In this document: positions 1 through 46,987 of the stretch, piece by piece
Numbering within the stretch: the first letter of the stretch is position 1
Layout: every line of letters starts with the position of its first letter
Virus record (IMG/VR): IMGVR_UViG_2526164667_000034
Direction: 5' to 3' (one strand)
Source: a virus
Taxonomy: Duplodnaviria > Heunggongvirae > Uroviricota > Caudoviricetes
Length of the DNA: 46,987 nucleotides
Made by a program: the position numbers and the translations under genes
The notes under the pieces: generated by a model
Told to the model about the DNA's origin: nothing
The model's database searches: none
What the model saw: the letters and a program-made list of their open reading frames with translations, nothing else

Positions 1-1158
1 ATGCTCACCGTTAAGCAGATTGAAGCAGCAAAGCCGAAAGAAAAACCATACCGCCTTCTCGATGGTAATGGCCTGTACCTTTATGTTCCTGTATCCGGGA
101 AAAAGGTATGGCAGCTTCGCTACAAGATTGACGGTAAGGAGAAAATCCTGACCGTCGGAAAATATCCGCTAATGACTTTGCAGGAGGCAAGGGATAAGGC
201 ATGGACTGCGAGGAAAGACATCTCGGTTGGCATCGATCCGGTAAAGGCGAAAAAGGCTTCGTCTAACAACAATTCCTTTAGTGCGATTTACAAGGAATGG
301 TACGAGCACAAGAAGCAAGTATGGTCAGTAGGGTATGCGACTGAACTTGCAAAAATGTTTGATGACGACATTTTGCCTATCATCGGCGGCCTTGAAATTC
401 AGGATATTGAGCCGATGCAACTGCTGGAAGTAATCCGCAGATTTGAAGATCGCGGTGCAATGGAGCGAGCAAATAAAGCCCGCAGAAGATGCGGCGAGGT
501 TTTCCGTTACGCTATTGTCACCGGCAGGGCTAAATATAACCCGGCACCTGACCTTGCTGACACCATGAGGGGATACCGCAAGAAGAACTTCCCGTTTCTT
601 CCTGCAGACCAGATCCCGGCATTCAATAAAGCACTGGCAACATTTTCAGGAAGTATCGTATCGCTCATTGCCACCAAGGTTTTACGCTACACAGCCCTAA
701 GAACAAAAGAGCTTCGTTCCATGCAATGGAAGAACGTCGATTTTGAAAACAGGATTATCACCATTGACGCCAATGTGATGAAGGGACGCAAAATTCATGT
801 TGTCCCGATGTCGGACCAGGTGGTTGAACTTCTCACTACGTTAAGCTCCATCACCAAACCAGTATCAGAATTTGTTTTTGCCGGGCGCAACGATAAGAAG
901 AAGCCAATCTGCGAGAACGCGGTGCTACTTGTGATCAAACAAATCGGCTATGAGGGTCTGGAAAGCGGTCACGGATTCAGGCATGAATTCAGCACGATTA
1001 TGAACGAGCACGAATGGCCTGCTGACGCTATTGAAGTGCAACTGGCACATGCCAACGGCGGATCTGTGCGCGGTATTTACAACCATGCTCAGTATCTCGA
1101 TAAGCGCAGAGAAATGATGCAATGGTGGGCGGACTGGCTTGATGAAAAGGTGGAGTGA
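1..1158 (+). CDS. int: Tyrosine integrase, P4 family (IntS-like, argW-integrating type)
   Basis: 385-aa ORF from the track. N-terminal arm-binding region plus C-terminal catalytic domain (HGFRHEF, RGIYNHAQY). Recalled as close to E. coli CPS-53 IntS; not verified by search. Lies at the prophage end opposite attR. Confidence 0.9.
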   Translation: MLTVKQIEAAKPKEKPYRLLDGNGLYLYVPVSGKKVWQLRYKIDGKEKILTVGKYPLMTLQEARDKAWTARKDISVGIDPVKAKKASSNNNSFSAIYKEWYEHKKQVWSVGYATELAKMFDDDILPIIGGLEIQDIEPMQLLEVIRRFEDRGAMERANKARRRCGEVFRYAIVTGRAKYNPAPDLADTMRGYRKKNFPFLPADQIPAFNKALATFSGSIVSLIATKVLRYTALRTKELRSMQWKNVDFENRIITIDANVMKGRKIHVVPMSDQVVELLTTLSSITKPVSEFVFAGRNDKKKPICENAVLLVIKQIGYEGLESGHGFRHEFSTIMNEHEWPADAIEVQLAHANGGSVRGIYNHAQYLDKRREMMQWWADWLDEKVE

Positions 1159-7136: not shown

Positions 7137-7204
7137 GTTGGTTTTTCTCCACGAATTTACCGACAACCGAAGCCCTGACTGTTCCAGCAGTTGGGGCTTC
7201 AACT

Positions 7205-20893: not shown

Positions 20894-22110
20894 GGCTGTG
20901 TATATCCTGCCGGGGTAGCTCCAGCGATAATGTTGCCAGATTTATCTCTCACTTCGCGCAACGGCAAGAACGCTGGGCGTTTCTTGTTGCGAGCCTCCCA
21001 GTGCTTCTCAAGTCCACGAATTTGCTCCATGCCAACTATAGGGATCTGACCGGGGTCTTGCGCTGCAGTATCAGCCAGCATTGATACCTGAAGGTTATAC
21101 AAACGCTGTGGATCCATTGCTTTTGCAATATGTCCTTCGACACGCTCAATGTCATCAATGAACCAGCGTTTTCCATAAACCGGGATGAGGGGGATATGCT
21201 CACCAGGAATACGTCGAGGTTTCTCAAGGAAACCATCACCATCCACTACGGATACATACACACGACGGCGCTTCACTGAGCGCCTTGCCACTTCCTGAAA
21301 TCCAGCTATTGCCAGTTCATCTTCAATATCTTCAACCTGATCACTGTCGTATGTTGCAATCTCTCCAGTGATTGGATGTCGATAACTGATGACGTCAACA
21401 GACTCTTTACGAACTTCGTAATACTTCGCTATGTAAATAACATCTGCATCAAACCAGTCATATTCCCAACTGGTCATAGACGTTACATCCAGAGAAGCAG
21501 GAGGTTTCTTTCCGTATTCAGCCTCATATTTTTCAGGTGACAACGAATACATGCAGAACGCCCACAACGCGTCAGATTTGTCGTACTTCTTAGCGTCAGG
21601 GTCAAACCACACAGAGCGCGACGGGTCGTATATTGGTTCAATAGCAATACGCTGACGATCGTCCATGGGGTCGTATTCATTGACCAGCATCGACGTCAAA
21701 CGGAAGCAACCGAAACCACCAGTAGCAGCGTCGTCAAATGCATTATCGCAAGCCTCACCGCCATCGGTTTCTTCGTAGTCAGCACGGAACAGACCATTTA
21801 ATTTATTGGCTAACTCTTCGCTTGCCTCTCTGTCACCAGGACGAAACTTAACAGTGATTCTGTTATTGCGGTATTCTGCAATGATGCGGTTAAGTTCAGT
21901 TGCTACCTTATTGATTTCAAACTTAGGATACTTCTCGAACTGCTCATCAAGCTTAGTTCCAGCCGCCGTTGCTCCTTCCCATTGACCTCCGGGGACACGA
22001 GCAAACCTCGTAGCTTCAATGCACTTTTCGCGCACTTCCTGCTGTGGAGAATAGGCGCGGTCAAACCTGAGCATGATCCGCTCATGTTTTTTCTCTAATG
22101 TCTCTGCCAT
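20894..22110 (-). pseudogene. Portal protein, N-terminal fragment (gene interrupted by IS629-like element)
   Basis: Track ORF 20659..22182; start trimmed to MAETLEKKHERIML. The C-terminal 78 residues of the track ORF (PEPPRVPGECF...) are translated IS sequence. Body aligns to P22/Sf6 portal. Confidence 0.8.
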
Positions 22111-22112
22111 GT

Positions 22113-23525
22113 TTACCAACCGGAGGATGAGGGAACGTATATTTCTGTTTCTTCGCGGACCAATGCCGGGCAATGCATACACATCATCAGCGCATCAGCC
22201 AGGTTAGGAGATGGGATACCGAGCTTCTGCTTCATTTCGACCTTAGTCATAAGCTCCAGCTTCCCGTTATTATTGAATTTGCGCTGAATCTGCGTCAGTT
22301 CTGCAAACAGCTTCTCCAGCATCTTCTCGCCTATCGCTTCTTTGTCGAAGCTCAGCATGTCGTCGGGGTCTGCATACTCACCGTGGACAACCGCCCGATA
22401 TGTCAGATACAGCCTGTCAGCCAGCGCGTAATAGAATTGCGCTCGCTTATTGCGGAATACATCGCCAATAGTGCGAACGTTGTCGCCCTGTACGACTTCA
22501 TCAGCCCATGCTCCGGCCTGATAAGGCCCATCTTCATCGAATGGCGATTCGCTGCCCTTGAACATCGTGGCGGTAATTTTCTTGCCGGAGAATGCTTCCG
22601 TTGTCTGTCTGCGTAGGCCCGCACCGACGCCATCACCGTCCCACAGGTAATGGTCAGCGCCGTCTTCAATCGCCAGCGAAGTAGCCCAGTCAGCACCCTC
22701 GTTGATGTCCATCAGCAGACCTTCGGCAATGCGCTTAACTACCGAACCGTGACGCGATGCATAACCTTTAGCATCTGGCCCTGTATCTGATGGGTCATGC
22801 GCAGAAACAACCGCACCTTTCGCTTTCCACCCGAGTTTCGTGTGCGCATCGGTTGCGGCTTCAAGCCATTCACGTTTGATGATTGCCATATCACTTGCGC
22901 TTACCGGCTCACCAAGCCAGATGTGACGATACAGTGTCGGATTTCTGCGTTTACACTCTTCCATCTCCAGACGGAGGACTTCAGGAAAATGCGGGTTGTC
23001 GGTGTAGTTCACCGTCAGCAGGCAAATATCATCGGGAGGATTTACGACGAATCGCTGATAGGTATCGTCGAGGATGTTTTTCGGGTTGAAACTTACCCAT
23101 ATTTCAGAGAACGGCTTACGGATGGTTGGAATCAGGATATCCCACGATTCCTTCGTTACCGCTTCCGCTTCTTCCACCCAGCAGATATCAATGCCTTCGA
23201 GCGATTTAATCTTCGTCGGGTTGTTTTTGATGCCGTAGAACATGAATTCAGCATTCGTTCCGAGATGACGAATCATTGAACGCTGAATTTCAAACTCAGC
23301 CGAATACCCTTCACGCTCGATGGTGTCTTCAAGCAACCTGATTACCGAATCGCTGATACTGTTTTGCAGCTCACGAGCGCAAAGAATACGCACAGGCTGC
23401 CGACGCGCCGCTTCAACAAGAAGCCTCGCAATTGCCCATGACTTACCGCTACCTCGACCGCCTTTAGCGACTTTGTAGCGATGCGCCTCAATGAACGGTT
23501 CAAAGATAGGATTAATCGAGGTCAT
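22113..23525 (-). CDS. terL: Terminase large subunit (Sf6 gp2-like)
   Basis: 470-aa ORF with Walker A (KGGRGSGKS) and C-terminal nuclease region; upstream of portal, downstream of terS. Confidence 0.9.
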   Translation of the reverse strand: MTSINPIFEPFIEAHRYKVAKGGRGSGKSWAIARLLVEAARRQPVRILCARELQNSISDSVIRLLEDTIEREGYSAEFEIQRSMIRHLGTNAEFMFYGIKNNPTKIKSLEGIDICWVEEAEAVTKESWDILIPTIRKPFSEIWVSFNPKNILDDTYQRFVVNPPDDICLLTVNYTDNPHFPEVLRLEMEECKRRNPTLYRHIWLGEPVSASDMAIIKREWLEAATDAHTKLGWKAKGAVVSAHDPSDTGPDAKGYASRHGSVVKRIAEGLLMDINEGADWATSLAIEDGADHYLWDGDGVGAGLRRQTTEAFSGKKITATMFKGSESPFDEDGPYQAGAWADEVVQGDNVRTIGDVFRNKRAQFYYALADRLYLTYRAVVHGEYADPDDMLSFDKEAIGEKMLEKLFAELTQIQRKFNNNGKLELMTKVEMKQKLGIPSPNLADALMMCMHCPALVREETEIYVPSSSGW

Positions 23526-25027: not shown

Positions 25028-27459
<2,432 letters not shown>

Positions 27460-33684: not shown

Positions 33685-33975
33685 TCATCTTTTAACTCCA
33701 TATACCGCCAATACCCGTTTCATCGCGGCACTCTGGCGACACTCCTTAAAAATTAGGTTCGTGCTCATCTTTCCTTCCCGTTCTTCCTTGGTAGCAAACC
33801 GGTAATACACCGTTCGCCAGACCTTACCTTCGATAACCAGAAGACCTGCCCGTGCCATTTTAGCCGCGGCCTGATTTATGCTGGTTACTGTTGCGCCTGT
33901 TAGCGCGGCAACGTCCGGCGCACAGAAGCTATTATGCGTCCCCAGGTAATGAATAATTGCCTCTTTGCCCGTCAT
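33685..33975 (-). CDS. Hypothetical phage protein downstream of P
   Basis: 96-aa ORF whose start overlaps the P stop; no family recognised. Confidence 0.55.
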   Translation of the reverse strand: MTGKEAIIHYLGTHNSFCAPDVAALTGATVTSINQAAAKMARAGLLVIEGKVWRTVYYRFATKEEREGKMSTNLIFKECRQSAAMKRVLAVYGVKR

Positions 33976-34673
33976 ACACTTGCTCCTTTCAGTCCGAACT
34001 TAGCTTTGAGTTCTGCGATCTTCGCCAGAGCCTGTGCACGATTTAGAGGTCTACCGCCCATGACAGGAAGTTGTTTTACTGGTTCAGGGATCGCCTCACC
34101 ACGGTTAATTCTCGCAGTCATATGGACAAGCTCATCTGCGGCCTTACGGCGTAATTCCGCATCAGTAAGCGCATTGGCCCGCATGTTCTGATACAGGTTG
34201 GTAACCAGCCAGTAGTGCGCGTTTGATTTCCACGGATAAGACTCCGCATCCGGATACAGGCCTCGCTTCCGGCAATACTCGTAAACCATATCAACCAGCT
34301 CGCTGACGTTTGGCAGTCCGGCGATAACGGATGCTTCTTCCCGGCACCATGCAACAAACTGCCCGGGTGATGGCAGGAATGGTCGATTCTGCCGACGGGC
34401 TACGCGCATTCCTGCGTTAACCTGTTCCATTGTGGTGATCCCGTTTTCCCGGAAAGCCAGAACCCACTGGCGGCGGATTTCGTTCAGTTCGTTCTGGTCA
34501 CGGTTAGCCAGGCTCGCCGGGAAAGTTGCCAGTAACTGGCTGAACACACCGTTGATGATCTGCGCTACCTGTTGTACCTGCGGCTTTTCGTCGTACTGTT
34601 CCGGCATGTTGTTGGCGATCCGACGCATCTGCTCACGGTCAAAGTTAACCATCTGTGCGGCGATGTTTTTCAT
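33972..34673 (-). CDS. P: Replication protein P (DnaB helicase loader), lambda-type
   Basis: 233 aa MKNIAAQMVNFDREQMRRIANNMPEQYDEKPQVQQVAQIING..., recalled as near-identical to lambda P. Confidence 0.95.
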   Translation of the reverse strand: MKNIAAQMVNFDREQMRRIANNMPEQYDEKPQVQQVAQIINGVFSQLLATFPASLANRDQNELNEIRRQWVLAFRENGITTMEQVNAGMRVARRQNRPFLPSPGQFVAWCREEASVIAGLPNVSELVDMVYEYCRKRGLYPDAESYPWKSNAHYWLVTNLYQNMRANALTDAELRRKAADELVHMTARINRGEAIPEPVKQLPVMGGRPLNRAQALAKIAELKAKFGLKGASV

Positions 34674-35608
34674 AAATCCACCCCGTAAATCCAGTCAGTG
34701 TTTGTCAGGTCGAGTTTTGGTTTGCTGGCTGTCACGCCTGCCTGTTGCTTGTTACGGTTGATTTCGAGCTGGGTCCACTTGTCGCGGAGTTTGGCCGGAC
34801 TCAGCACGTTACCGGACCAGAAGTTGTCCTGGCAGGCCCAGCGGAAAAGCACACACATATCGCGGTGGTTACGTCCGTCACGTTCACGCATCAGGCGGAT
34901 ATCGTTAGCCCACCCTGCAAAATTCGGTTTTCTGGCTGATGGTGCGATGGTCTTCACCATGTCAAACATCCACTCTGCGGCGGTCAGGTCTTCTGCTGTT
35001 CCCCACTTGCTGCCGCTCTGAATTGCAGCATCCGGTTTAACCACAGAAAGATCGTTTTCTGGCTGGTCAGAGGATTCGCCAGAATTCTCGGACGAATAAT
35101 CTTTTCTTTTTTCTTTTGTAATAGTGTCTTTTGTGTCCCCCTGTTTTGAGGGATAGCAATCCCCTAATTTGAGGGATGTTTTATCCCTCGTTTTAGGGGA
35201 TTTTCCCTCGTTTTGAGGGATCTCCCTCATTTTAGGGGAACCTCCCTCGTTTTGAGGGATGCACCATTCTGAGATGTTTTTATTTGGTCCAAACATGCCG
35301 CCTTGCTGCTTGATAATATTCATTCTGACGAGTTCTAACTTGGCTTCATTGCACCGTTTGACAGGTAACTTTGTAATCTCGCTAAGTTGAGAATCGGTGA
35401 TTCTGTCCATTGGTTTATTCCACCCATAGGTTTTACGCAGAATGGCAAGCAGCACTTTAAACTGTCGCTTGGTCAGATCTGCGCCTGAATAGGCCTCAAG
35501 CAGCATATTTGATAGTCTGGCGTAACCATCATCGAGATCTGCCACATTACGCTCCTGTTCGGCAAAGTTACCTCTGCCGAAGTTGAGTATTTTTGCTGTA
35601 TTTGTCAT
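34670..35608 (-). CDS. O: Replication initiator O, lambda-type, with expanded iteron-encoded repeat
   Basis: 312 aa MTNTAKILNFGRGNFAEQERNVADLDDGYARLSNMLLEAY..., recalled as lambda O (299 aa). Contains tandem IPQNEGGSPKMRE / IPQNEGKSPKTRD encoded by the iterons. Confidence 0.95.
   Translation of the reverse strand: MTNTAKILNFGRGNFAEQERNVADLDDGYARLSNMLLEAYSGADLTKRQFKVLLAILRKTYGWNKPMDRITDSQLSEITKLPVKRCNEAKLELVRMNIIKQQGGMFGPNKNISEWCIPQNEGGSPKMREIPQNEGKSPKTRDKTSLKLGDCYPSKQGDTKDTITKEKRKDYSSENSGESSDQPENDLSVVKPDAAIQSGSKWGTAEDLTAAEWMFDMVKTIAPSARKPNFAGWANDIRLMRERDGRNHRDMCVLFRWACQDNFWSGNVLSPAKLRDKWTQLEINRNKQQAGVTASKPKLDLTNTDWIYGVDL
35137..35260. repeat. Replication origin iterons (about 6 copies, TCCCTC-N-GAGGGA type) with adjacent AT-rich tract
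   Basis: Repeats CCCCTGTTTTGAGGGA, CCCCTAATTTGAGGGA, ATCCCTCGTTTTAGGGGA, TCCCTCGTTTTGAGGGA, CTCCCTCATTTTAGGGGA, CTCCCTCGTTTTGAGGGA inside O; AT-rich region at about 35085-35135. Confidence 0.85.
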
Positions 35609-39707: not shown

Positions 39708-39998
39708 ATGGAATTTAAAGGTACTGAAGGTAAGTGGGAAATAATGATGGATGGCGATGAGATTAAAATCATCCAGGCAGACTCACTTGAAAATGGCGCA
39801 GGCTGGCGTTCGTATATTGCAATCTGTGAGGAAGTTCAATGTATTGAAGATGCCAATCTAATAGCGGCAGCACCTGACCTTTTAAATGCCCTGAAAGCGA
39901 TGCTAAACAAGGCATACAAGCAAAACTGGAATGACCATTATCCTGATGAAGTATCGAAAGCACAGTCAGCAATTAGCAAAGCTCTTGGGGAAGAATGA
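39708..39998 (+). CDS. Hypothetical protein
   Basis: 96-aa acidic ORF with GAGG-type RBS; no family recognised. Confidence 0.5.
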   Translation: MEFKGTEGKWEIMMDGDEIKIIQADSLENGAGWRSYIAICEEVQCIEDANLIAAAPDLLNALKAMLNKAYKQNWNDHYPDEVSKAQSAISKALGEE

Positions 39999-40156
39999 TG
40001 AATAAGAAATACATTGTTGAAGTTATAGAGCGAGAAACGAAAGAAGTAATTAAACATTTCGAATTTGATAATTATAGAAAAGCTGACCACGTCGAAGAAG
40101 GATTGTTGCGACAAAGTAATCTCGAAAAATTTGATGTTGTCATGCGATGCGAATAA
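39995..40156 (+). CDS. Small hypothetical protein
   Basis: Hand-translated about 53 aa (MMNKKYIVEVIERETKEVIKHFEFDNYRKADHVEEGLLRQSNLEKFDVVMRCE), ATGA overlap with upstream stop. Coordinates +/-2 nt. Confidence 0.4.
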   Translation: MMNKKYIVEVIERETKEVIKHFEFDNYRKADHVEEGLLRQSNLEKFDVVMRCE

Positions 40157-40249
40157 GCGCCTATAGCAGATTTACGAGTCTGCTATGTGAGCAATGTCGC
40201 TCGTAACTAAACAGGAGCCGACTTGTTCTGATTATTGGAAATCTTCTTT

Positions 40250-40275
40250 GCCCTCCGATGTGAGGGCTTTTTTAT
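40250..40275 (+). terminator. Rho-independent terminator within the early-left operon
   Basis: GCCCTC-CGATGTG-AGGGC hairpin followed by TTTTTTAT. Confidence 0.7.
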
Positions 40276-40339
40276 ATGCATACCAATAACGCTTCACTCG
40301 AGGCGTTTTCGTTATGCAATCAAATATAAGGAGTTACCC

Positions 40340-40474
40340 ATGATGCACTTTCAGCTCGCGGGTAGCGGCGTCATGTCCGCTTTCTACCCGCACGAATCTG
40401 AATTATCACGCCGAGTTAAACAATTAATTAGAGCAGCAAAGAAACAACTGGAGGCGTTATGCGCAATGAAATAG
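40340..40474 (+). CDS. cIII: CIII-like protein (putative FtsH/HflB inhibitor)
   Basis: 44 aa MMHFQLAGSGVMSAFYPHESELSRRVKQLIRAAKKQLEALCAMK with AAGGAG RBS. Shares the x-A-G ... SE-L ... amphipathic helix pattern and operon position of lambda CIII. Confidence 0.6.
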   Translation: MMHFQLAGSGVMSAFYPHESELSRRVKQLIRAAKKQLEALCAMK

Positions 40475-40611
40475 CCATTAATCACCAGATGCTTCGTGCG
40501 GCACAAAACAAAGCAGTAATAGCCAGATTTATTGGTGATTCAAAAATGTGGCTTGAAGCAAATAAAGCGATGAAATCAGCTATCAACCTTCCGTGGTATC
40601 GCAGGAAATGA
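40459..40611 (+). CDS. Small hypothetical protein (kil-position)
   Basis: Hand-translated about 50 aa (MRNEIAINHQMLRAAQNKAVIARFIGDSKMWLEANKAMKSAINLPWYRR...), overlapping the cIII end. Coordinates approximate. Confidence 0.35.
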   Translation: MRNEIAINHQMLRAAQNKAVIARFIGDSKMWLEANKAMKSAINLPWYRRK

Positions 40612-40778
40612 GTTTCACAGATAACTGGTCAGACGAAGAATTCATTCGTCAGATGAAAGAATTAATCGGTAACGAAGGAGATATTCATGTCACTTGCAAC
40701 CACAGTGAAGGAGAGCAAGTTACAGAGACGCATGTACACGCAGCAGGCGTTAATGTATCGCCAGAAGGGAGATCGTGA
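40608..40778 (+). CDS. Small hypothetical protein
   Basis: Track ORF 40593..40778; ATG at MSFTDNWSDEEFIRQ overlaps upstream stop (ATGA). Confidence 0.35.
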   Translation: MSFTDNWSDEEFIRQMKELIGNEGDIHVTCNHSEGEQVTETHVHAAGVNVSPEGRS

Positions 40779-40867
40779 AGGTGTTCGCGTATTTTTAAAT
40801 GCGGCAAAGACTGAAGTATTAAATCAGCGTTATTTCCTTGGGCCATGCCCATTCTGAGAACAAACAT

Positions 40868-41473
40868 ATGAGCAAAGACTTTTACGCAAGACTGGCAGCT
40901 ATTCAGGAGAACTTGAACGCGCCAAAGAATCAGTACAACTCATTCGGTAAATATAAATACAGAAGCTGCGAAGACATTCTTGAAGGCGTTAAGCCGTTAC
41001 TGAATGGCCTGTTTTTATCAATCAGCGATGAAGTTGTGTTGATTGGTGATCGGTATTATGTGAAAGCCACGGCAACTATTACCGATGGCGAAAACAGTCA
41101 TACGGCAACCGCTCTTGCACGAGAGGAAGAAAGCAAGAAAGGAATGGATTCTGCACAAGTTACGGGAGCTACAAGCTCTTATGCACGCAAGTATTGCCTC
41201 AATGGTTTATTCGGCATTGATGATGCGAAAGATGCAGATACCGACGAGCATAAACATCAGCAGAACGCAGCAGCAAAGCAGTCAAAACCATCACCTACAC
41301 CTGAACAGGTTCTAAAAGCATTCACTGACGCAGCATTGCAGAAAAACACCGTGGAAGAGCTTAAACAGGCGTTCGCCAAAGCGTGGAAGATGCTCGAAGG
41401 CACACCGGAGCAGCACAAAGCGCAGGACGTTTACAACATCAGACGAGACGAATTAGAAGGAGCTGCTGCTTAA
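40868..41473 (+). CDS. erf: Erf-family single-strand annealing protein (P22 Erf-like)
   Basis: Start at MSKDFYARLAAIQENLNAPKNQYNSFGKYKYRSCEDILEGVKPLLNGLFLSISDE..., recalled as near-identical to the P22 Erf N-terminal domain. Confidence 0.9.
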   Translation: MSKDFYARLAAIQENLNAPKNQYNSFGKYKYRSCEDILEGVKPLLNGLFLSISDEVVLIGDRYYVKATATITDGENSHTATALAREEESKKGMDSAQVTGATSSYARKYCLNGLFGIDDAKDADTDEHKHQQNAAAKQSKPSPTPEQVLKAFTDAALQKNTVEELKQAFAKAWKMLEGTPEQHKAQDVYNIRRDELEGAAA

Positions 41474-41856
41474 TGGCACATTCGATTACTGTAAGACTAA
41501 ACAAGCCCGCAAGAGAGTTTCAGGCCGGGGAAAATATCGGATTCAACATCCGTGCTGGCGTTCAGTATTACGATCGCCAGACAAAAAAGAAAGAATGGAC
41601 AAACTACAGCGCCGTTGTATTTGCCAAGCCGGGAGCGCAAGCGGATTACTACCGTAGTGTTCTTGTTGAAGGTGGCATTGTGGAAATTACCGGAGAAAAC
41701 ATCAGGGTTGATGTTTATCAGGGGCAAAATGGTCAATCAATCACTCTTGAATTACTGAATGCAAAGATTGGATTTGCAGCTTCAGGAAATGGCCCGCAGC
41801 AGCAAAGTAGTAACCAGCAGAACACTCCTGTATACGACGATTCCATCCCATTCTGA
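41473..41856 (+). CDS. Single-stranded DNA-binding protein-like (OB fold with acidic DDSIPF tail)
   Basis: Track ORF 41383..41856; start at MAHSITVRLN (TAATG overlap with erf). Gln-rich linker and C-terminal ...DDSIPF typical of SSB tips. Confidence 0.7.
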   Translation: MAHSITVRLNKPAREFQAGENIGFNIRAGVQYYDRQTKKKEWTNYSAVVFAKPGAQADYYRSVLVEGGIVEITGENIRVDVYQGQNGQSITLELLNAKIGFAASGNGPQQQSSNQQNTPVYDDSIPF

Positions 41857-41879
41857 TTTAGAAAAATAAGGATTTAATT

Positions 41880-42173
41880 ATGCCAGCGCCTCTGTATGGT
41901 GCGGATGACCCACGCCGCTGTTCCGGCAATTCCGTATCGGAGGTGCTGGATAAATTCAGAAAAAACTACGATCGGATAATGTCGCTACCGCAGGAAACGA
42001 AAGAGGAAAAGGAATTTCGCCATTGTATATGGCTTGCAGAGAAAGAAGAACGCGAGCGAATTTACCAGACATCAATCCGACCATTCCGCAAAGCCACATA
42101 TACCCACTTCCCTGAAATTGACCCGCGCCTGCGTAATTACCGCTCACGCTATGGCGCTATCAGTAATGACTGA
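41880..42173 (+). CDS. Hypothetical protein (position of P22 abc anti-RecBCD genes)
   Basis: 97-aa ORF with AAGGA RBS; function inferred only from position after erf/ssb. Confidence 0.4.
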
Positions 42174-42344
42174 GGAATTTACCATGAGAGGACTTGCATA
42201 CAATCCCGGCATTCTTCCGGCAGAAATGATTATTCGCCAACGCGTAAAGCCAATGCCATCGAGAGAGTAATTGCTTAAGAGAAAGAGTTTCGGTTCTGTT
42301 AATGACAACAAATATCTGAATGCTATGTGGCGGAGTGGGAAAAA

Positions 42345-42932
42345 ATGAAACAAATGTCACTAATTGAGATGGATGGTTTTCTGAAAGGTAAATGCATCCC
42401 ACGAGATCTAAAGGTTAACGAAACAAACGCTGAATATCTTGTCCGTAAGTTCGGTGAACTTGAATCAAAACTGGAAACGGCGTTGCGGGAGTGTCGTTCT
42501 GCTGGAATCACGATTGATAACCTTGAGGCCAAGTGCGCGGCGCTGGCAGCGGAGAGTGCGGGGATGAAGAAGTTCTGCAAAGACGCTGCATTCGATGCCG
42601 ATTACGAAGCAGAGCTAGGTATGGAGCGTGGTTTATTCAGTGATGCGCTTAACGAAATCAAAACCCCAGCCACCGATGCTTTCCTGGCTGAAGTACGTGC
42701 GGAAGCACGCAACGAGGGTATTAACTATGCCGCAAGCCGTCTTGCTGCTGCTTTCAACCACGGATTTATCAATAAGTCTTTACGTGAAGTTTTCGATGTT
42801 ACGCGCATGATTCTGTCAGCGAAAGAAGAGTTGGCTAATGAACCGCATCCGATTGATGGCCTGTCTGGTGAATATGCGGAGAAATCCCTTGAAGAATGGG
42901 CGGAACAGATTCGCAAAGGAGGCAACCAGTGA
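42345..42932 (+). CDS. Hypothetical early-left protein
   Basis: Track ORF 42327..42932; start chosen at MKQMSLIEMDGF with GGAGTGG RBS. Confidence 0.5.
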   Translation: MKQMSLIEMDGFLKGKCIPRDLKVNETNAEYLVRKFGELESKLETALRECRSAGITIDNLEAKCAALAAESAGMKKFCKDAAFDADYEAELGMERGLFSDALNEIKTPATDAFLAEVRAEARNEGINYAASRLAAAFNHGFINKSLREVFDVTRMILSAKEELANEPHPIDGLSGEYAEKSLEEWAEQIRKGGNQ

Positions 42933-43669
42933 GCAAGATTGACTATCAGGCACTGCGTGCCAAGGCAGAAAAAGCAACGTGTGGTGTATGGTCGCTCGAA
43001 TATGGAGAGAGCCGATTTGATTGTGATGATGCGTTAATTCATCGTGAAGTTGTTGGATATCTTCCCATTTGCAGAATTGAAGGAGCACATCCAGAAAGCG
43101 GTTTCGATGAAGATTTCCAAATGGAACAGCAGGCCAATGCTGAATTCATCGCCGCAGCCAATCCGGCTACTGTGCTGGCATTACTGGATGAACTGGAAAG
43201 AAACCAGCAATACATCAAACGCCGCGATCAGGAGAACGAGGAAATTGCGCTAACGGTAGGGAAGCTGCGTGTTGAGCTTGAGGAAGCAAAATCAAAACTC
43301 AACGAGCAGCGTGAGTATTACGAAGGTGTTATCTCGGATGGGAGTAAACGTATTGCTGAACTGGAGAAAAGCGAAGAGCAACTCATTAACGAGCGTGACC
43401 ATGCTGAGTCTGCTTTAGCTGATATGTACTTCGCAACAACCGGGGATAGGCCTGAGTGGAGTAACTGTTTCAGTTTTTCAGATGCTGTCGATGCCGTAGT
43501 TGACAGAATTGCTGATTTAGAAGCCAAACAGCCATCGCCAGTAGTACCGGAAGAAAAACCAATGCCTAACCCTCTTAGCATGTACACAGTTGATGCTGTT
43601 GCAGCTATTGCAGAGGTGAGAGGCTGGAACGCCTGCCGTGCAGCCATGCTTAAGGGAGATAAATCATGA
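42929..43669 (+). CDS. Ead/Ea22-like protein
   Basis: GTG start overlapping upstream stop. VSKIDYQALRAKAEKATCGVWSL...ANAEFIAAANPATVLALLDELE resembles lambdoid Ea22-family proteins. Confidence 0.65.
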   Translation: MSKIDYQALRAKAEKATCGVWSLEYGESRFDCDDALIHREVVGYLPICRIEGAHPESGFDEDFQMEQQANAEFIAAANPATVLALLDELERNQQYIKRRDQENEEIALTVGKLRVELEEAKSKLNEQREYYEGVISDGSKRIAELEKSEEQLINERDHAESALADMYFATTGDRPEWSNCFSFSDAVDAVVDRIADLEAKQPSPVVPEEKPMPNPLSMYTVDAVAAIAEVRGWNACRAAMLKGDKS

Positions 43670-44450: not shown

Positions 44451-44750
44451 ATGGCCTGTTCAACATTCAACCCTTTAACGTTACAGAAATACCAGCCAGA
44501 CCCTGAAGATTTATGCTCACTGTGTGGCGGAAATCATGGTAAAGCTGCCATGATCGAATGTAAGGACAAAATCCACATATGCCTTAATTGCGTTGATGTC
44601 CTCGTTGATATCAAAAATGAAAGAGAAGATAAAAAGCGTAGCGAGGCTATTCGCGCCTTAGATTCATGGATGCGAGATGGGTATAGTGCTGCGCAAATTT
44701 ATGACTTAGCCATTTCAAAAGGCGAAATACCAGGTGTGCGAATCGAATAA
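44451..44750 (+). CDS. Hypothetical Cys-rich (zinc-binding-like) protein
   Basis: Track ORF 44439..44750; start at MACSTF with GGAG RBS. Cys pattern C..CGG...C...C..C. Confidence 0.5.
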   Translation: MACSTFNPLTLQKYQPDPEDLCSLCGGNHGKAAMIECKDKIHICLNCVDVLVDIKNEREDKKRSEAIRALDSWMRDGYSAAQIYDLAISKGEIPGVRIE

Positions 44751-44770
44751 GAAGCGCACTCAAGCATCTT

Positions 44771-44953
44771 TTGGGGAAATCACAAATGCACTTCCGAGTC
44801 ACAGGTGAATTGAATGGAGAACCATTCAACAGAGTTATCGAAGCAGAGGACATCAACGACTGCTATGACCACTGGATGATATGGGCGCAGATAGCACATG
44901 CAGACGTAACCAATATTCGAATTGAAGAACTGAAAGAACACCAAGCCGCCTGA
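44771..44953 (+). CDS. Small hypothetical protein
   Basis: 60-aa track ORF (possible internal start MHFRV) ending in a terminator hairpin. Confidence 0.35.
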   Translation: MGKSQMHFRVTGELNGEPFNRVIEAEDINDCYDHWMIWAQIAHADVTNIRIEELKEHQAA

Positions 44954-44968
44954 TGGCGGTTTTTTATT
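44945..44968 (+). terminator. Rho-independent terminator upstream of xis
   Basis: GCCGCC-TGATG-GCGGT hairpin followed by TTTTTTATT. Confidence 0.7.
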
Positions 44969-45010
44969 GCCTGATTTGCAGGTTCGATTCCCTATTCGGA
45001 GATAGCACTC

Positions 45011-45211
45011 ATGCAACACGAACTACAACCTGATTCACTGGTTGATTTGAAATTCATCATGGCTGATACTGGCTTTGGTAAAACCTTCATCTACGACCGG
45101 ATTAAGTCCGGCGACCTGCCTAAAGCCAAAGTTATCCACGGTCGAGCAAGATGGTTATATCGTGACCATTGTGAATTCAAAAATAAGCTCTTAAGCCGCG
45201 CTAATGGGTAA
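45011..45211 (+). CDS. xis: Excisionase / AlpA-family DNA-binding protein
   Basis: 66-aa ORF; ...LKFIMADTGFGKTFIYDRIKSGDLPKAKVIHGRARW... is a typical AlpA/Xis winged-helix motif. Last phage gene before attR. Confidence 0.75.
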   Translation: MQHELQPDSLVDLKFIMADTGFGKTFIYDRIKSGDLPKAKVIHGRARWLYRDHCEFKNKLLSRANG

Positions 45212-45284
45212 AATAGCGGGTAAAATATTTCTCACATCTAAAAAATACCATTCTAATCAATCCCCTGCCACTCTAAGTAGATGT

Positions 45285-45299
45285 CTGCAGGGGACACCA
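45285..45299 (+). other. attR core: 15-bp copy of the tRNA-Arg (argW) 3' end
   Basis: CTGCAGGGGACACCA equals the 3' acceptor/T-arm end of argW as recalled. Upstream sequence diverges from the tRNA, so this is the partial copy. Exact core extent not determinable from one junction. Confidence 0.6.
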
Positions 45300-45739
45300 G
45301 ATACCCTTCAAACGAAATCTACCTTCACCCCGTAAAAGATAGGTTTGGCAGCACACTTGCCTTATATCTACTCATTTTTACTGCAACAGGTTGAAATCTC
45401 AGCACTGTCAGAAAGCGCTGATGACTAAACAGCCCTGGGCCGGGCGATGTAACCATCACACAGAATCCTGATAGCGAAATATGGCGTGACTCGATACTTC
45501 ACTCCGCAATGCATTCCTTGATGAATTCGCAGGACCGTGATACACGGGACAGGTCGCTGAATGACGACAATGTCCTGGAAATCAGCGAACCGCGCATCTG
45601 AAGTACATTTGAGCGACTGTACCAGAACATGAATGAGGCGTTTGGATTAGGTGATTATTAGCAGGGCTAAGCACTTTAGTATTATTATTTTCCGGTTGAG
45701 GGATAGGGAGATATCGACAACAACCGGAAAAGTTTACGT

Positions 45740-46987
45740 CTATATTGCTGAAGGTACAGGCGTTTCCATAACTATTTGCTCGCGTTTTTTACTCAGGAAG
45801 AAAATGCCAAATAGCAACATCAGGCAGACAATACCCGAAATTGCGAAGAAAACTGTCTGGTAGCCTGCGTGGTCAAAGAGTATCCCAGTCGGCGTTGAAA
45901 GCAGCACAATCCCAAGCGAACTGGCAATTTGAAAACCAATCAGAAAGATCGTCGACGACAGGCGCTTATCAAAATTTGCCACGCTGTATTTGAAGACGGA
46001 TATGACACAAAGTGGAACCTCAATAGCATGTAACAGCTTCACTAATGAAATAATCCAGGGGTTAACGAACAGCGCGCAGGAAAGGATACGCAACGCCATA
46101 ATCACAACACCGATAAGTAATGCATTTTTTGGCCCTACCCGATTCACAAAGAAAGGAATAATCGCCATGCATAGCGCTTCGAGTACCACCTGGAATGAGT
46201 TGAGATAACCATACAGGCGCGTTCCTACATCGTGTGATTCGAATAAACCTGCATAAAAGACAGGAAAAAGTTGTTGATCAAAAATGTTATAGAAAGACCA
46301 CGTCCCCACAATAAATATGACGAAAACCCAGAAGTTTCGATCCTTGAAAACTGCGATAAAATCCTCTTTTTTTACCCCTCCCGCATCCGCCGCTACGCAC
46401 TGGTGATCCTTATCTTTAAAACACATGTTGATCATCATAAATACAGCGCCAAATAGCGAGACCAACCAGAAGTTGATATGGGGACTGATACTAAAAAATA
46501 TGCCGGCAAAGAACGCGCCAATAGCATAGCCAAAAGATCCCCAGGCGCGCGCTGTTCCATATTCGAAATGAAAATTTCGCGCCATTTTTTCGGTGAAGCT
46601 GTCAAGCAAACCGCATCCCGCCAGATACCCCAGGCCAAAAAAGAGCGCCCCCAGAATTAGACCTACAGAAAAATTGCTTTGCAGTAACGGTTCATAAACG
46701 TAAATCATAAACGGTCCGGTCAAGACCAGGATGAAACTCATACACCAGATGAGCGGTTTCTTCAGACCGAGTTTATCCTGAACGATGCCGTAGAACATCA
46801 TAAATAGAATGCTGGTAAACTGGTTGACCGAATAAAGTGTACCTAATTCCGTCCCTGTCAACCCTAGATGTCCTTTCAGCCAAATAGCGTATAACGACCA
46901 CCACAGCGACCAGGAAATAAAAAAGAGAAATGAGTAACTGGATGCAAAACGATAGTACGCATTTCTGAATGGAATATTCAGTGCCAT
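45740..46987 (-). CDS. cscB: LacY-family oligosaccharide:H+ symporter, sucrose permease CscB-like (host gene)
   Basis: 415-aa 12-TM ORF starting at the window edge. LacY-family motifs (GLKKPLIW..., FEYGTARAWGSFGYA). Recalled as CscB of the csc regulon, which maps next to argW; not verified. Confidence 0.75.
   Translation of the reverse strand: MALNIPFRNAYYRFASSYSFLFFISWSLWWSLYAIWLKGHLGLTGTELGTLYSVNQFTSILFMMFYGIVQDKLGLKKPLIWCMSFILVLTGPFMIYVYEPLLQSNFSVGLILGALFFGLGYLAGCGLLDSFTEKMARNFHFEYGTARAWGSFGYAIGAFFAGIFFSISPHINFWLVSLFGAVFMMINMCFKDKDHQCVAADAGGVKKEDFIAVFKDRNFWVFVIFIVGTWSFYNIFDQQLFPVFYAGLFESHDVGTRLYGYLNSFQVVLEALCMAIIPFFVNRVGPKNALLIGVVIMALRILSCALFVNPWIISLVKLLHAIEVPLCVISVFKYSVANFDKRLSSTIFLIGFQIASSLGIVLLSTPTGILFDHAGYQTVFFAISGIVCLMLLFGIFFLSKKREQIVMETPVPSAI

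Follow-up and report, generated by a model that had tools for sequence, protein, structure and literature searches.

A common HK97-type recombination cassette, erf followed by a divergent SSB gene, in a P22-like prophage

The recombination module of phage P22 is ordered arf-erf-abc1-abc2 and contains no SSB (PMC12315714). A different arrangement is found in HK97, where kil and gp42-like genes precede erf, gp40 and abc2, and in both HK97 and HK022 the erf-gp40-abc2 module accompanies lambda-like O and P replication genes. HK97 gp40 was named 'SSB-1b' on the basis of its AlphaFold 3 fold (Zheng/Casjens/Smith et al., Genome Res 2025, PMC12315714), and the same survey assigns 27 of its 325 panel phages to the HK75 class of Rec module, which combines an anti-RecBCD protein, an SSB and an annealase and has no nuclease. 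In HK620, the gene for a RecA-like Sak4 recombinase is immediately succeeded by that of a non-canonical SSB, with abc2 next; this SSB belongs to the DUF669 family 'SSB-2' and has an acidic PPF tip, and its last six residues are required for loading the adjacent recombinase and stimulating it (Hutinet et al. 2018, PMC5928155, which also summarises the binding of the SSB tip to host partners). RecT-family annealases recognise the seven C-terminal residues of SSB (10.1101/2020.04.14.041095), and the C-terminal domain (CTD) of lambda Red-beta, a small helical annealase appendage, binds the SSB C-terminal peptide (Caldwell et al. 2019, PMC6393309).

The locus described here lies in a window of 46,987 nucleotides (IMG/VR record IMGVR_UViG_2526164667_000034), a P22-like prophage that carries lambda O/P replication genes and whose virion background is P22-like, not HK97-like. 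The recombination cassette, 40868-41856, is bounded exactly by the erf start and by the stop of the following open reading frame, ORF2 (Table 1). It is contiguous with abc2, the third member of the module, whose product is 94% identical to P22 Abc2, and the upstream gene kil belongs to the early-left operon. The gene order is that of HK97 throughout, and that of HK620 from the recombinase gene to abc2, with Erf in place of Sak4 and a gp40-type SSB in place of SSB-2. From the gene order of P22 and HK97, the cassette would itself be part of the early-left operon; a promoter and terminator scan of 39900-42400 returned no signal within the cassette that exceeded shuffled expectation, and Rfam identified no RNA family within the cassette region. 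Minus-strand ORFs across the region were disregarded. Pfam and PHROG scans of eight ORFs in 40459-43669 found no nuclease family, and with an anti-RecBCD protein, an SSB and an annealase the module belongs to the HK75 class.

Table 1. Coordinates of the recombination region and of the replication genes within the window.
Feature	Position	Strand	Description or evidence
kil	40459..40611	+	50 aa; Pfam Lambda_Kil PF06301 E 1.7e-20; PHROG 2055
Two overlapping small ORFs, 40608-40778 and 40687-40857	40608..40857	+	PHROG 2123 (5e-40), PHROG 1723 (4.5e-34)
erf (ORF1)	40868..41473	+	201 aa; ERF core residues 5-143; Pfam ERF 151.6 bits
Erf C-terminal domain, aa 142-201	41291..41470	+	AF2 model; CTD HMM matches
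Block without P22 DNA similarity (Erf C-terminal domain and ORF2)	41329..41869	+	blastn
AAGGAG Shine-Dalgarno for ORF2, within erf 3' end	41457..41462	+	read from sequence
ORF2, HK97 gp40-type divergent SSB ('SSB-1b')	41473..41856	+	127 aa
ORF2 OB domain, aa 1-103	41473-41781	+	
ORF2 disordered Q-rich linker, aa 104-121	41782-41835	+	
ORF2 acidic tip DDSIPF, aa 122-127	41836-41853	+	
abc2, anti-RecBCD protein	41880..42173	+	97 aa; Pfam Anti-RecBCD_p2 PF11043 E 6e-64
lambda-type O	34670-35608	-	Pfam
lambda-type P	33972-34673	-	Pfam

ORF1, which runs from an ATG at 40868 to a TAA at 41471-41473 on the plus strand, is an intact erf gene. Its product matches Pfam ERF (PF04404) with an E-value of 2.1e-44 and 151.6 bits against a cutoff of 25, aligning residues 5-143 with positions 1-146 of the 153-position profile, and matches PHROG 155 'Erf-like ssDNA annealing protein' (6e-57). 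The 201-residue protein aligns end to end with the 205-residue P22 Erf at 74% identity, much higher in the N-terminal core, and this full-length comparison revealed no stops or frameshifts. It is 99% identical to HK97 Erf, and copies that are identical or 99% identical occur in 80 IMG/VR loci. Judged from its family, Erf is a Rad52-like single-strand annealing protein, for which a ring and annealing activity are predicted.

ORF2 begins with an ATG at 41473, which shares one base with the erf stop codon (TAATG), and ends with a TGA at 41854-41856; the AAGGAG motif sits 10 nt upstream of its start. This overlap, together with a Shine-Dalgarno sequence that lies within erf, makes translational coupling of the pair probable. 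A longer, GTG-started version of ORF2 (41383, 157 aa) was rejected, as all homologues begin with MAHS or MAHT at the TAATG junction. The erf-gp40 pair is present at 95% identity or above in 580 of 5426 complete E. coli genomes, ORF2 is intact with its IPF tip in 74 of 78 parsed IMG/VR loci, and comparison with a Cronobacter homologue gives a dN of 0.10, a dS of about 3 and a dN/dS of 0.03 over the OB part. ORF2 is thus under strong purifying selection, and the widespread pair, the intact copies and the low dN/dS establish that both ORFs are real genes and not chance ORFs.

Domain profiles do not identify ORF2 as an SSB. No Pfam match, including PF00436, was found at E <= 0.1; NCBIfam TIGR00621 scored 13.5 bits against a cutoff of 53.95; a precomputed SSB Pfam domain is assigned to none of 120 ORF2 homologues; and phmmer and family-profile searches of PDB sequences gave nothing significant, the best profile E-value being 0.4. 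The connection to SSB comes only through PHROGs, hhalign and fold comparison. ORF2 matches PHROG 44 'single strand DNA binding protein' (E 2.9e-27) and belongs to the HK97 gp40 family ('SSB-1b'; PHROG 44), sharing 94% identity with gp40 over 127 residues. An hhalign comparison of the gp40-family profile with E. coli SSB reached 88.6% probability (E 2.6e-6), and it is on this 88.6%-probability alignment that the pairing of ORF2 Y32, W42, F50 and Y82 with E. coli SSB W40, W54, F60 and W88 rests; at each of the four ORF2 positions, 49-50 of 50 family members have an aromatic residue. The AF2 model of ORF2 (mean pLDDT 84, with block means of at least 83 and mostly 91-96 through residue 100) has the topology beta1-3, helix, beta4-5, a predicted OB fold of SSB-like topology, followed by disorder at residues 107-127 (pLDDT below or near 50). 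All of the top 50 Foldseek PDB matches listed are bacterial or mitochondrial SSBs or PriB, with a best E-value of 2e-5.

ORF2 therefore resembles E. coli SSB in its OB fold, its four aromatic ssDNA-contact positions, its disordered linker and its acidic IPF-ending tip, but shares little recognisable sequence similarity with it and has a linker of about 18 residues where E. coli SSB has about 55. Based on fold, aromatic positions, linker and tip, and selection, ORF2 is a remote homologue of bacterial SSB. Binding of ssDNA as a homo-oligomer (tetramer or dimer) is putative, the structure having been modelled as a single chain. It is highly improbable that ORF2 is instead an OB-fold protein with another ligand, such as RNA or the primosome in the manner of a PriB-like adaptor, and that its tail is a decoy, for instance one that evades or triggers host sensors directed at phage SSBs. 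Fold searches do place PriB and other OB folds that are not SSBs near to SSBs, and retron Eco8 has been reported to sense phage SSBs (bioRxiv 10.1101/2025.11.11.687766); however, the four ssDNA-stacking aromatic positions are conserved, PriB has no acidic tip, and the gene context lacks defence or anti-defence genes.

The C-terminus of ORF2 reads PVYDDSIPF, and an acidic tip ending in IPF, PPF or VPF is present in 44 of 50 aligned homologues. In the gp40 family the linker is Q/P-rich, its length ranging between 20 and 81 residues, and the tip keeps an aromatic-acidic-IPF pattern throughout. The allele in the window retains the DDSIPF tip, whereas the HK97 reference gp40 does not: a 1-nt insertion changes its end to DDSNPILI and destroys the tip. 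A frameshifted gp40-type copy is carried by HF4s and a truncated copy by mEp234. Since HK97, HF4s and mEp234 are all isolated phages, there are at least some conditions in which a phage can do without the ORF2-type protein or its tip.

Much of what an earlier sequence-only reading proposed for these genes is borne out. Its Erf-family annealing protein is secure from the Pfam score and the identity to P22 Erf, the erf gene is full length and shows no stops or frameshifts when checked for inactivating changes, and both the overlapping stop and start and the DDSIPF ending are as described. The SSB-like character that it gave to ORF2 agrees with the alignment to host SSB, the OB fold on which that character depended is predicted with bacterial SSBs as the best structural matches, the acidic tip that it singled out is a conserved feature of the family, and the lambda-like replication background is confirmed by Pfam matches for both O and P.

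The same reading erred in calling the pair P22-type and in regarding it as another mosaic joint with O/P. In P22, the slot between erf and abc2 is occupied by Abc1, a 94-residue protein unrelated to ORF2, and the arrangement in the window is the erf-gp40-abc2 of HK97 and HK022, which already join this module to lambda-like O/P genes. The window shares Erf, Abc2 and the operon position after kil with P22 but lacks a recognisable Arf or Abc1. The two small ORFs upstream of erf match P22 arf in position and are the equivalents of HK97 gp42/gp42.1, from whose continuous gp42 frame they differ by two 1-nt deletions; neither matches Pfam Phage_Arf at E <= 0.1, whereas two relatives (L089 and L091) do have PF17585 (Phage_Arf). 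By blastn, P22 aligns only with 40868-41328 (78.6%) and 41870-42326 (84.5%), so that the actual break lies inside erf at about 41329 and similarity returns at 41870. The cassette is a common, already catalogued HK97-type module and not a P22 one.

The shared position of ORF2 and Abc1 raises the idea that ORF2 substitutes for Abc1 and acts with Abc2 to modulate RecBCD rather than as an SSB. Both genes occupy the erf/abc2 slot, and both overlap erf by the same single base. Nevertheless, ORF2 and P22 Abc1 gave no alignment at E <= 100, and Abc1 resembles a small helix-turn-helix protein (sigma-70-like in some records). ORF2 homologues also adjoin Erf or Sak4 at loci where no Abc2 is recorded (L084, L087, L093, L094 and L099), and canonical SSBs fill the slot elsewhere; a role as an Abc1 substitute has very little to recommend it.

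One such canonical SSB, ending in DFDDDIPF, lies in the position of ORF2 in Salmonella phage ABTNLsp11242, directly after an Erf that is nearly the same as that of the window, C-terminal domain included; this SSB is close to E. coli SSB, unlike ORF2. A hypothesis in two parts, each tying an allele of the Erf CTD to its neighbour, was rejected. An HK97-type CTD allele restricted to gp40-type SSBs is contradicted by ABTNLsp11242, where it precedes a canonical SSB. A P22-type CTD allele restricted to Abc1 is contradicted by ES18, Sf6, HK75 and ECP1, all of which have this P22-type region and bear an SSB, as determined here for ECP1 and as given in PMC12315714 for the canonical SSBs of the ES18, Sf6 and HK75 Rec modules. 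With both parts rejected, the slot after erf is simply a swap site.

Replication requires an SSB, and many phages bring their own for this purpose; on these grounds ORF2 could be the SSB of the lambda-type O/P replisome, its linkage to erf being incidental. This is unlikely, as ORF2 lies about 6 kb from O/P, across the immunity region and in the early-left recombination cluster, and as the lambda O/P system is known to replicate with host SSB. Moreover, the ORF2 type travels with Erf or Sak4 across differing gene neighbourhoods. Conservation of the pairing was assessed by ten look-ups of diverged ORF2 homologues, down to about 52% identity: Erf is immediately upstream in five and within 1 kb in one, and a Sak4-like recombinase is immediately upstream in another one of the ten. 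Vibrio phage K7 likewise encodes Erf followed directly by a gp40-type SSB.

Taken with the HK620 precedent, ORF1 and ORF2 are likely, with a probability of roughly three in four, to form the core (annealase plus SSB) of a lambdoid recombination module of the HK97/HK75 class in which the phage SSB coats ssDNA and loads Erf through its tip. Under this proposal, Abc2-modified RecBCD or host nucleases would be the source of ssDNA exposed at phage DNA ends, and the phage SSB would coat it. The acidic tip would then recruit Erf to the SSB-covered strand, perhaps via the helical C-terminal domain of Erf, a contact that is purely conjectural. Annealing of complementary strands by Erf would close headful-packaged, terminally redundant DNA into circles and supply recombination-dependent replication.

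The tip may also look outward. The DDSIPF of ORF2 differs at one position from the DDDIPF of E. coli SSB and, because it matches the host's tip, ORF2 could also engage host SSB partners. The phage SSB might then act mainly as a competitor of host SSB that draws host partners to phage ssDNA or titrates them, the partners meant being Exo I, RecQ, RecO, PriA, Pol III chi and others. The near-identity of the tips, the conserved aromatic-acidic-IPF pattern and the established binding of such tips to partners (PMC5928155) are in keeping with competition, but the conserved neighbour is a recombinase and no host-takeover gene, and in HK620, the one experimentally studied analogue, the tip loads the phage's own recombinase (PMC5928155). 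Competition as the main role is accordingly doubtful, albeit a more serious candidate than a replication SSB. It is compatible with Erf loading; the HK620 precedent points first to recruitment of Erf and does not conflict with competition.

The C-terminal domain of Erf, the suggested partner of the tip, is modelled by AF2 as three to four helices (pLDDT 80). A Foldseek search of the PDB with this model gave no match below E = 3. Like the Red-beta CTD it is a small helical appendage of an annealase, with no sequence or structural match detected between the two. The domain, of about 55 residues, is attached to diverged Erf cores whose sources range from E. coli to phages of Vibrio. It also occurs on RecA-like Sak4/AAA_24 proteins at 13 loci, nearly all from Enterobacterales, and in Erwinia phage EhrS_59, with 52-69% identity; the C-terminus of a Leminorella AAA_24 protein is 52% identical (E 2e-15). 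These Sak4-like carriers, counted as loci, were found by gene-context look-ups and a genome scan. A word-indexed protein database search for carriers yielded only short Erf fragments, and an exhaustive phmmer search with the 60-residue CTD gave 17 matches, all the informative ones being Erf.

Of the 13 CTD-bearing Sak4-like loci, 11 are directly followed by a gene for an SSB with an acidic (I/P)PF tip. As caveats to a link between CTD and tip, three of five Sak4-like genes without the CTD have an SSB neighbour too, marine Erfs beside gp40-type SSBs have no CTD, and P22 Erf has the CTD but P22 has no phage SSB. Tentatively, and with less than even odds, the Erf CTD may be a mobile adaptor domain, recognising the acidic tip of SSBs of host or phage origin, that has been shuffled between unrelated recombinase cores.

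The importance of the locus is modest, as this is a lambdoid recombination module in its textbook position, with identical or almost identical copies in hundreds of E. coli genomes and in phages already described (HK97, HK022 and Stx1a phages), and the SSB assignment of ORF2 is already in the literature through HK97 gp40 'SSB-1b' (PMC12315714). The RefSeq label of ORF2, 'hypothetical protein', could nonetheless be improved, given that fold, residues, tail and context indicate an SSB. In other systems, the match between annealase and SSB tail decides whether recombineering succeeds in a given host, which makes the pair of Erf and its cognate mini-SSB a cheap candidate recombineering tool. A CTD common to Erf and Sak4-like recombinases also offers a concrete starting point for studying the 'shuffling of partner interaction domains', a matter that the 2025 survey did not settle. 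If the CTD is indeed such an adaptor, the main purpose of the host-mimicking tip would be the loading of the phage's own recombinase, and the CTD-tip pair would be a transferable unit deciding which recombinase works in which host.

The erf gene (ORF1) and the gene that follows it (ORF2) overlap at a TAATG junction, where the erf stop shares its A with the ATG of ORF2, and the ORF2 product ends in NTPVYDDSIPF. The sequence-only reading was exact in its coordinates and in its description of an Erf gene, an overlapping stop and start, and a DDSIPF end. Pfam ERF (PF04404) matches residues 5-143 of ORF1 with 151.6 bits against a 25-bit cutoff, PHROG 155 ('Erf-like ssDNA annealing protein') matches with an E-value of 6e-57, and the protein is 74% identical to P22 Erf in an end-to-end alignment and 99% identical to HK97 Erf. 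No stops or frameshifts are present in erf, and the inactivating changes named by that reading as an objection are therefore not found.

Features of the erf-ORF2 pair and of other parts of the prophage
Feature	Coordinates	Strand	Remark
erf (ORF1)	ATG 40868 to TAA 41471-41473	+	201 codons
AAGGAG	41457-41462	+	10 nt upstream of ORF2 start
ORF2	TAATG junction to TGA 41854-41856	+	127 codons
Integrase	1-1158	+	
Portal, C-part	18672-19574	-	
IS3 orfA	19639-19965	+	
ALIL frameshift pseudoknot	19920-20036		Rfam
IS3 orfB	19962-20852	+	
Portal, N-part	20659-22182	-	
istA-like	25591-26613		
IstB	26610-27392		
LacY-family oligosaccharide transporter	45740-46987	-	right flank; sugar kinase follows

ORF2 is named 'hypothetical protein' in RefSeq and is accepted by none of the curated SSB models: a Pfam scan gave no match at E <= 0.1, NCBIfam TIGR00621 scored 13.5 bits, below its 53.95-bit cutoff, and PDB sequences searched with the protein itself and with a profile gave no significant match. 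Four independent lines, namely fold, remote homology, architecture, and selection and integrity, place ORF2 among the bacterial-type SSBs. The AlphaFold2 model, made with 50 homologs, has a mean pLDDT of 84, with block means of at least 83 and mostly 91-96 up to residue 100, and predicts the topology beta1-3, helix, beta4-5, with residues 107-127 as a disordered tail. Every one of the best 50 Foldseek matches listed from PDB, from an E-value of 2e-5, is PriB or an SSB of bacterial or mitochondrial origin, with moderate scores and PriB nearly equalling SSB. Predicted fold and matches therefore dispose of the objection that ORF2 lacks an OB fold, and the SSB assignment passes the tests that the sequence-only reading had set for it. 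In hhalign, the ORF2-family profile matches E. coli SSB with 88.6% probability (E 2.6e-6) and pairs Y32, W42, F50 and Y82 with W40, W54, F60 and W88, which stack on ssDNA; each of these four positions is aromatic in 49-50 of 50 homologs. PHROG 44 ('single strand DNA binding protein') also matches ORF2 (E 2.9e-27). In 120 homologs, a Q/P-rich linker, whose length varies widely, comes after the OB part and leads to a conserved acidic tip ending in IPF, PPF or VPF. Comparison with a Cronobacter homolog indicates purifying selection (dN 0.10, dS ~3, dN/dS 0.03), and ORF2 is intact with an IPF tip in 74 of the 78 parsed IMG/VR loci.

The cassette is an ordinary, already described HK97-type module that had been wrongly labelled P22-type. 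HK97 has the same gene order (kil, gp42-like, erf, gp40, abc2), and its gp40 is 94% identical to ORF2. Over its full 1.8 kb the region matches HK97, HK022, HK106, HK446, several mEp phages and Stx1a-converting phages at 95-99.9% identity, and 580 of 5426 complete E. coli genomes contain the erf-ORF2 pair. In P22, by contrast, the gene that separates erf from abc2 is abc1, which overlaps erf by one base just as ORF2 does; the 94-aa Abc1 has no similarity to ORF2, and there is no DNA similarity across ORF2. Because P22 DNA aligns to the window only at 40868-41328 (78.6%) and 41870-42326 (84.5%), the block replaced relative to P22 comprises the C-terminal ~47 codons of erf plus ORF2, placing one mosaic boundary inside erf. 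The Abc2 gene directly downstream of ORF2 (PF11043, E 6e-64) encodes a protein 94% identical to P22 Abc2. RefSeq treats the DUF2737 gene just after abc2 as a pseudogene, interrupted by an internal stop, in an E. coli genome whose erf-ORF2 stretch is identical to that of the window (L095 7317-7481; about 42184-42350 in the window). A 2025 survey of 325 lambdoid phages reported that SSB genes are missing from the lambda, P22 and Rac modules, that the predicted structure of HK97 gp40, named 'SSB-1b', resembles bacterial SSBs, and that 27 phages form a class with anti-RecBCD, SSB and annealase and without a nuclease (PMC12315714); the cassette in the window is a member of this class. Lambda-type O and P genes are present as claimed, but the proposed mosaic joint with them is not new, because HK97 and HK022 already combine the same recombination module with replication genes of the same kind.

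Pairing with recombinases extends to distant relatives. Among context look-ups of 10 diverged gp40-type proteins (75% down to ~52% identity), an Erf gene lies immediately upstream in five and within 1 kb in one, and a Sak4-like gene (a RecA-like AAA_24 recombinase) lies immediately upstream with overlapping stop and start in another; the upstream region is IS-disrupted in one and contains no recognisable recombinase in two. Vibrio phage K7 has the order exonuclease, Erf, gp40-type SSB, endonuclease. In Salmonella phage ABTNLsp11242, the corresponding slot behind an Erf nearly identical to that of the window holds a canonical host-like SSB whose last residues are DFDDDIPF, and ES18, Sf6 and HK75, which have a P22-type Erf end, are reported to have a canonical SSB (PMC12315714). 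The position downstream of erf is therefore a swap site, taken by Abc1, a canonical SSB or a gp40-type SSB, and this non-orthologous replacement speaks for ORF2 acting as an SSB.

The gp40-type SSB gene is damaged in several phage isolates. A 1-nt A insertion in HK97 (L001 3576-3965) turns the tip DDSIPF into DDSNPILI (IPF to NPILI), a frameshift in an A-run in HF4s (L002 2517-2912) leaves ORFs of 94 and 36 aa, and mEp234 (L097 1674-1868), the prototype of a class scored SSB-positive (PMC12315714), keeps only 64 codons. Under laboratory conditions at least, plaques can therefore form without the gp40-type protein or its tip.

A small helical domain (pLDDT 80) is predicted for the final ~55 residues of Erf, which have the consensus LKAF..A......ELK.AF..AWK.L.GT..Q.KA.DVY.IR..ELE. 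The same domain is present on a very different Erf core that is 29% identical overall (L089), on Vibrio phage Erfs, and on a Sak4-like protein of Leminorella (52% identity, E 2e-15), whose copy is 69% identical to that of Erwinia phage EhrS_59 (L098). Of the 18 loci found when genomes were scanned with the Leminorella protein, 13 carry the domain, and 12 of those come from Enterobacterales genera. Domain-carrying Sak4-like recombinases are ~287-299 aa long and nearly all from Enterobacterales (L100-L113, L098); the domain is missing from the 221-aa relative in Enterobacter pasteurii (L111) and from relatives further removed. An SSB gene lies directly after, or one gene beyond, the domain-carrying gene in 11 of the 13 loci; two of these SSBs are of the gp40 type and the rest canonical, and, apart from the Mixta copy (L109), every one has an acidic tip of the form (I/P/V/T)PF. 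A portable domain fits the remark that module promiscuity probably stems from the shuffling of domains for partner interaction (PMC12315714). The distribution of this domain does not prove a tip-binding role, because three of five Sak4-like genes without the domain also adjoin SSB genes, marine Erfs adjoining gp40-type SSBs differ at the C-terminus, the domain is present on P22 Erf in a phage with no SSB of its own, Foldseek of the domain found no relative, and neither of two domain alleles sorts with the type of downstream gene.

Elsewhere in the prophage, an IS3-family insertion interrupts the P22-type portal gene (18672-22182); virions can probably no longer be made, although the recombination genes are intact. 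A second insertion sequence, of the IS21 family (25591-27392), separates the virion genes from the lysis/late-control region. The kil-erf interval (40608-40857) contains two overlapping ORFs in different frames, each matching a PHROG labelled 'recombinase' and neither matching P22 Arf; HK97 has one continuous 83-aa gp42 here, from which the window differs by two 1-nt deletions. The prophage also has a P22-like immI/ant region, since Rfam finds the P22 sar antisense RNA at 7137-7204 (90.6 bits). A TorI-like excisionase gene lies at the end opposite the integrase (annotated at L095 10144-10344; the 44750-46987 side of the window), and the int/xis arrangement resembles the KplE1/Sf6/HK620 type. 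No tRNA gene is present inside the window.

P22 Abc2 reprograms RecBCD, and the headful-packaged, terminally redundant DNA of P22 circularises by recombination. The virion genes of the window (coat, portal, stabilisation protein, tailspike) are P22-like, and the need for recombination to circularise headful DNA fits an Erf module here. Judging from precedents, the phage SSB would coat ssDNA arising at phage DNA ends and its tip would then bring Erf onto the covered strand. Sak4 depends on the last six residues of HK620 SSB both to bind SSB-coated DNA and to be stimulated in vivo and in vitro (PMC5928155), RecT-family annealases read the last seven SSB residues (10.1101/2020.04.14.041095), and the C-terminal three-helix bundle of Red-beta binds the SSB C-terminal peptide (PMC6393309). 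That the phage SSB competes with host SSB for partners, as the sequence-only reading had proposed, is compatible with such recruitment of Erf and would be a secondary effect. Only two items look forward from this module: the biochemistry of gp40-type SSBs and the C-terminal domain shared among recombinases.
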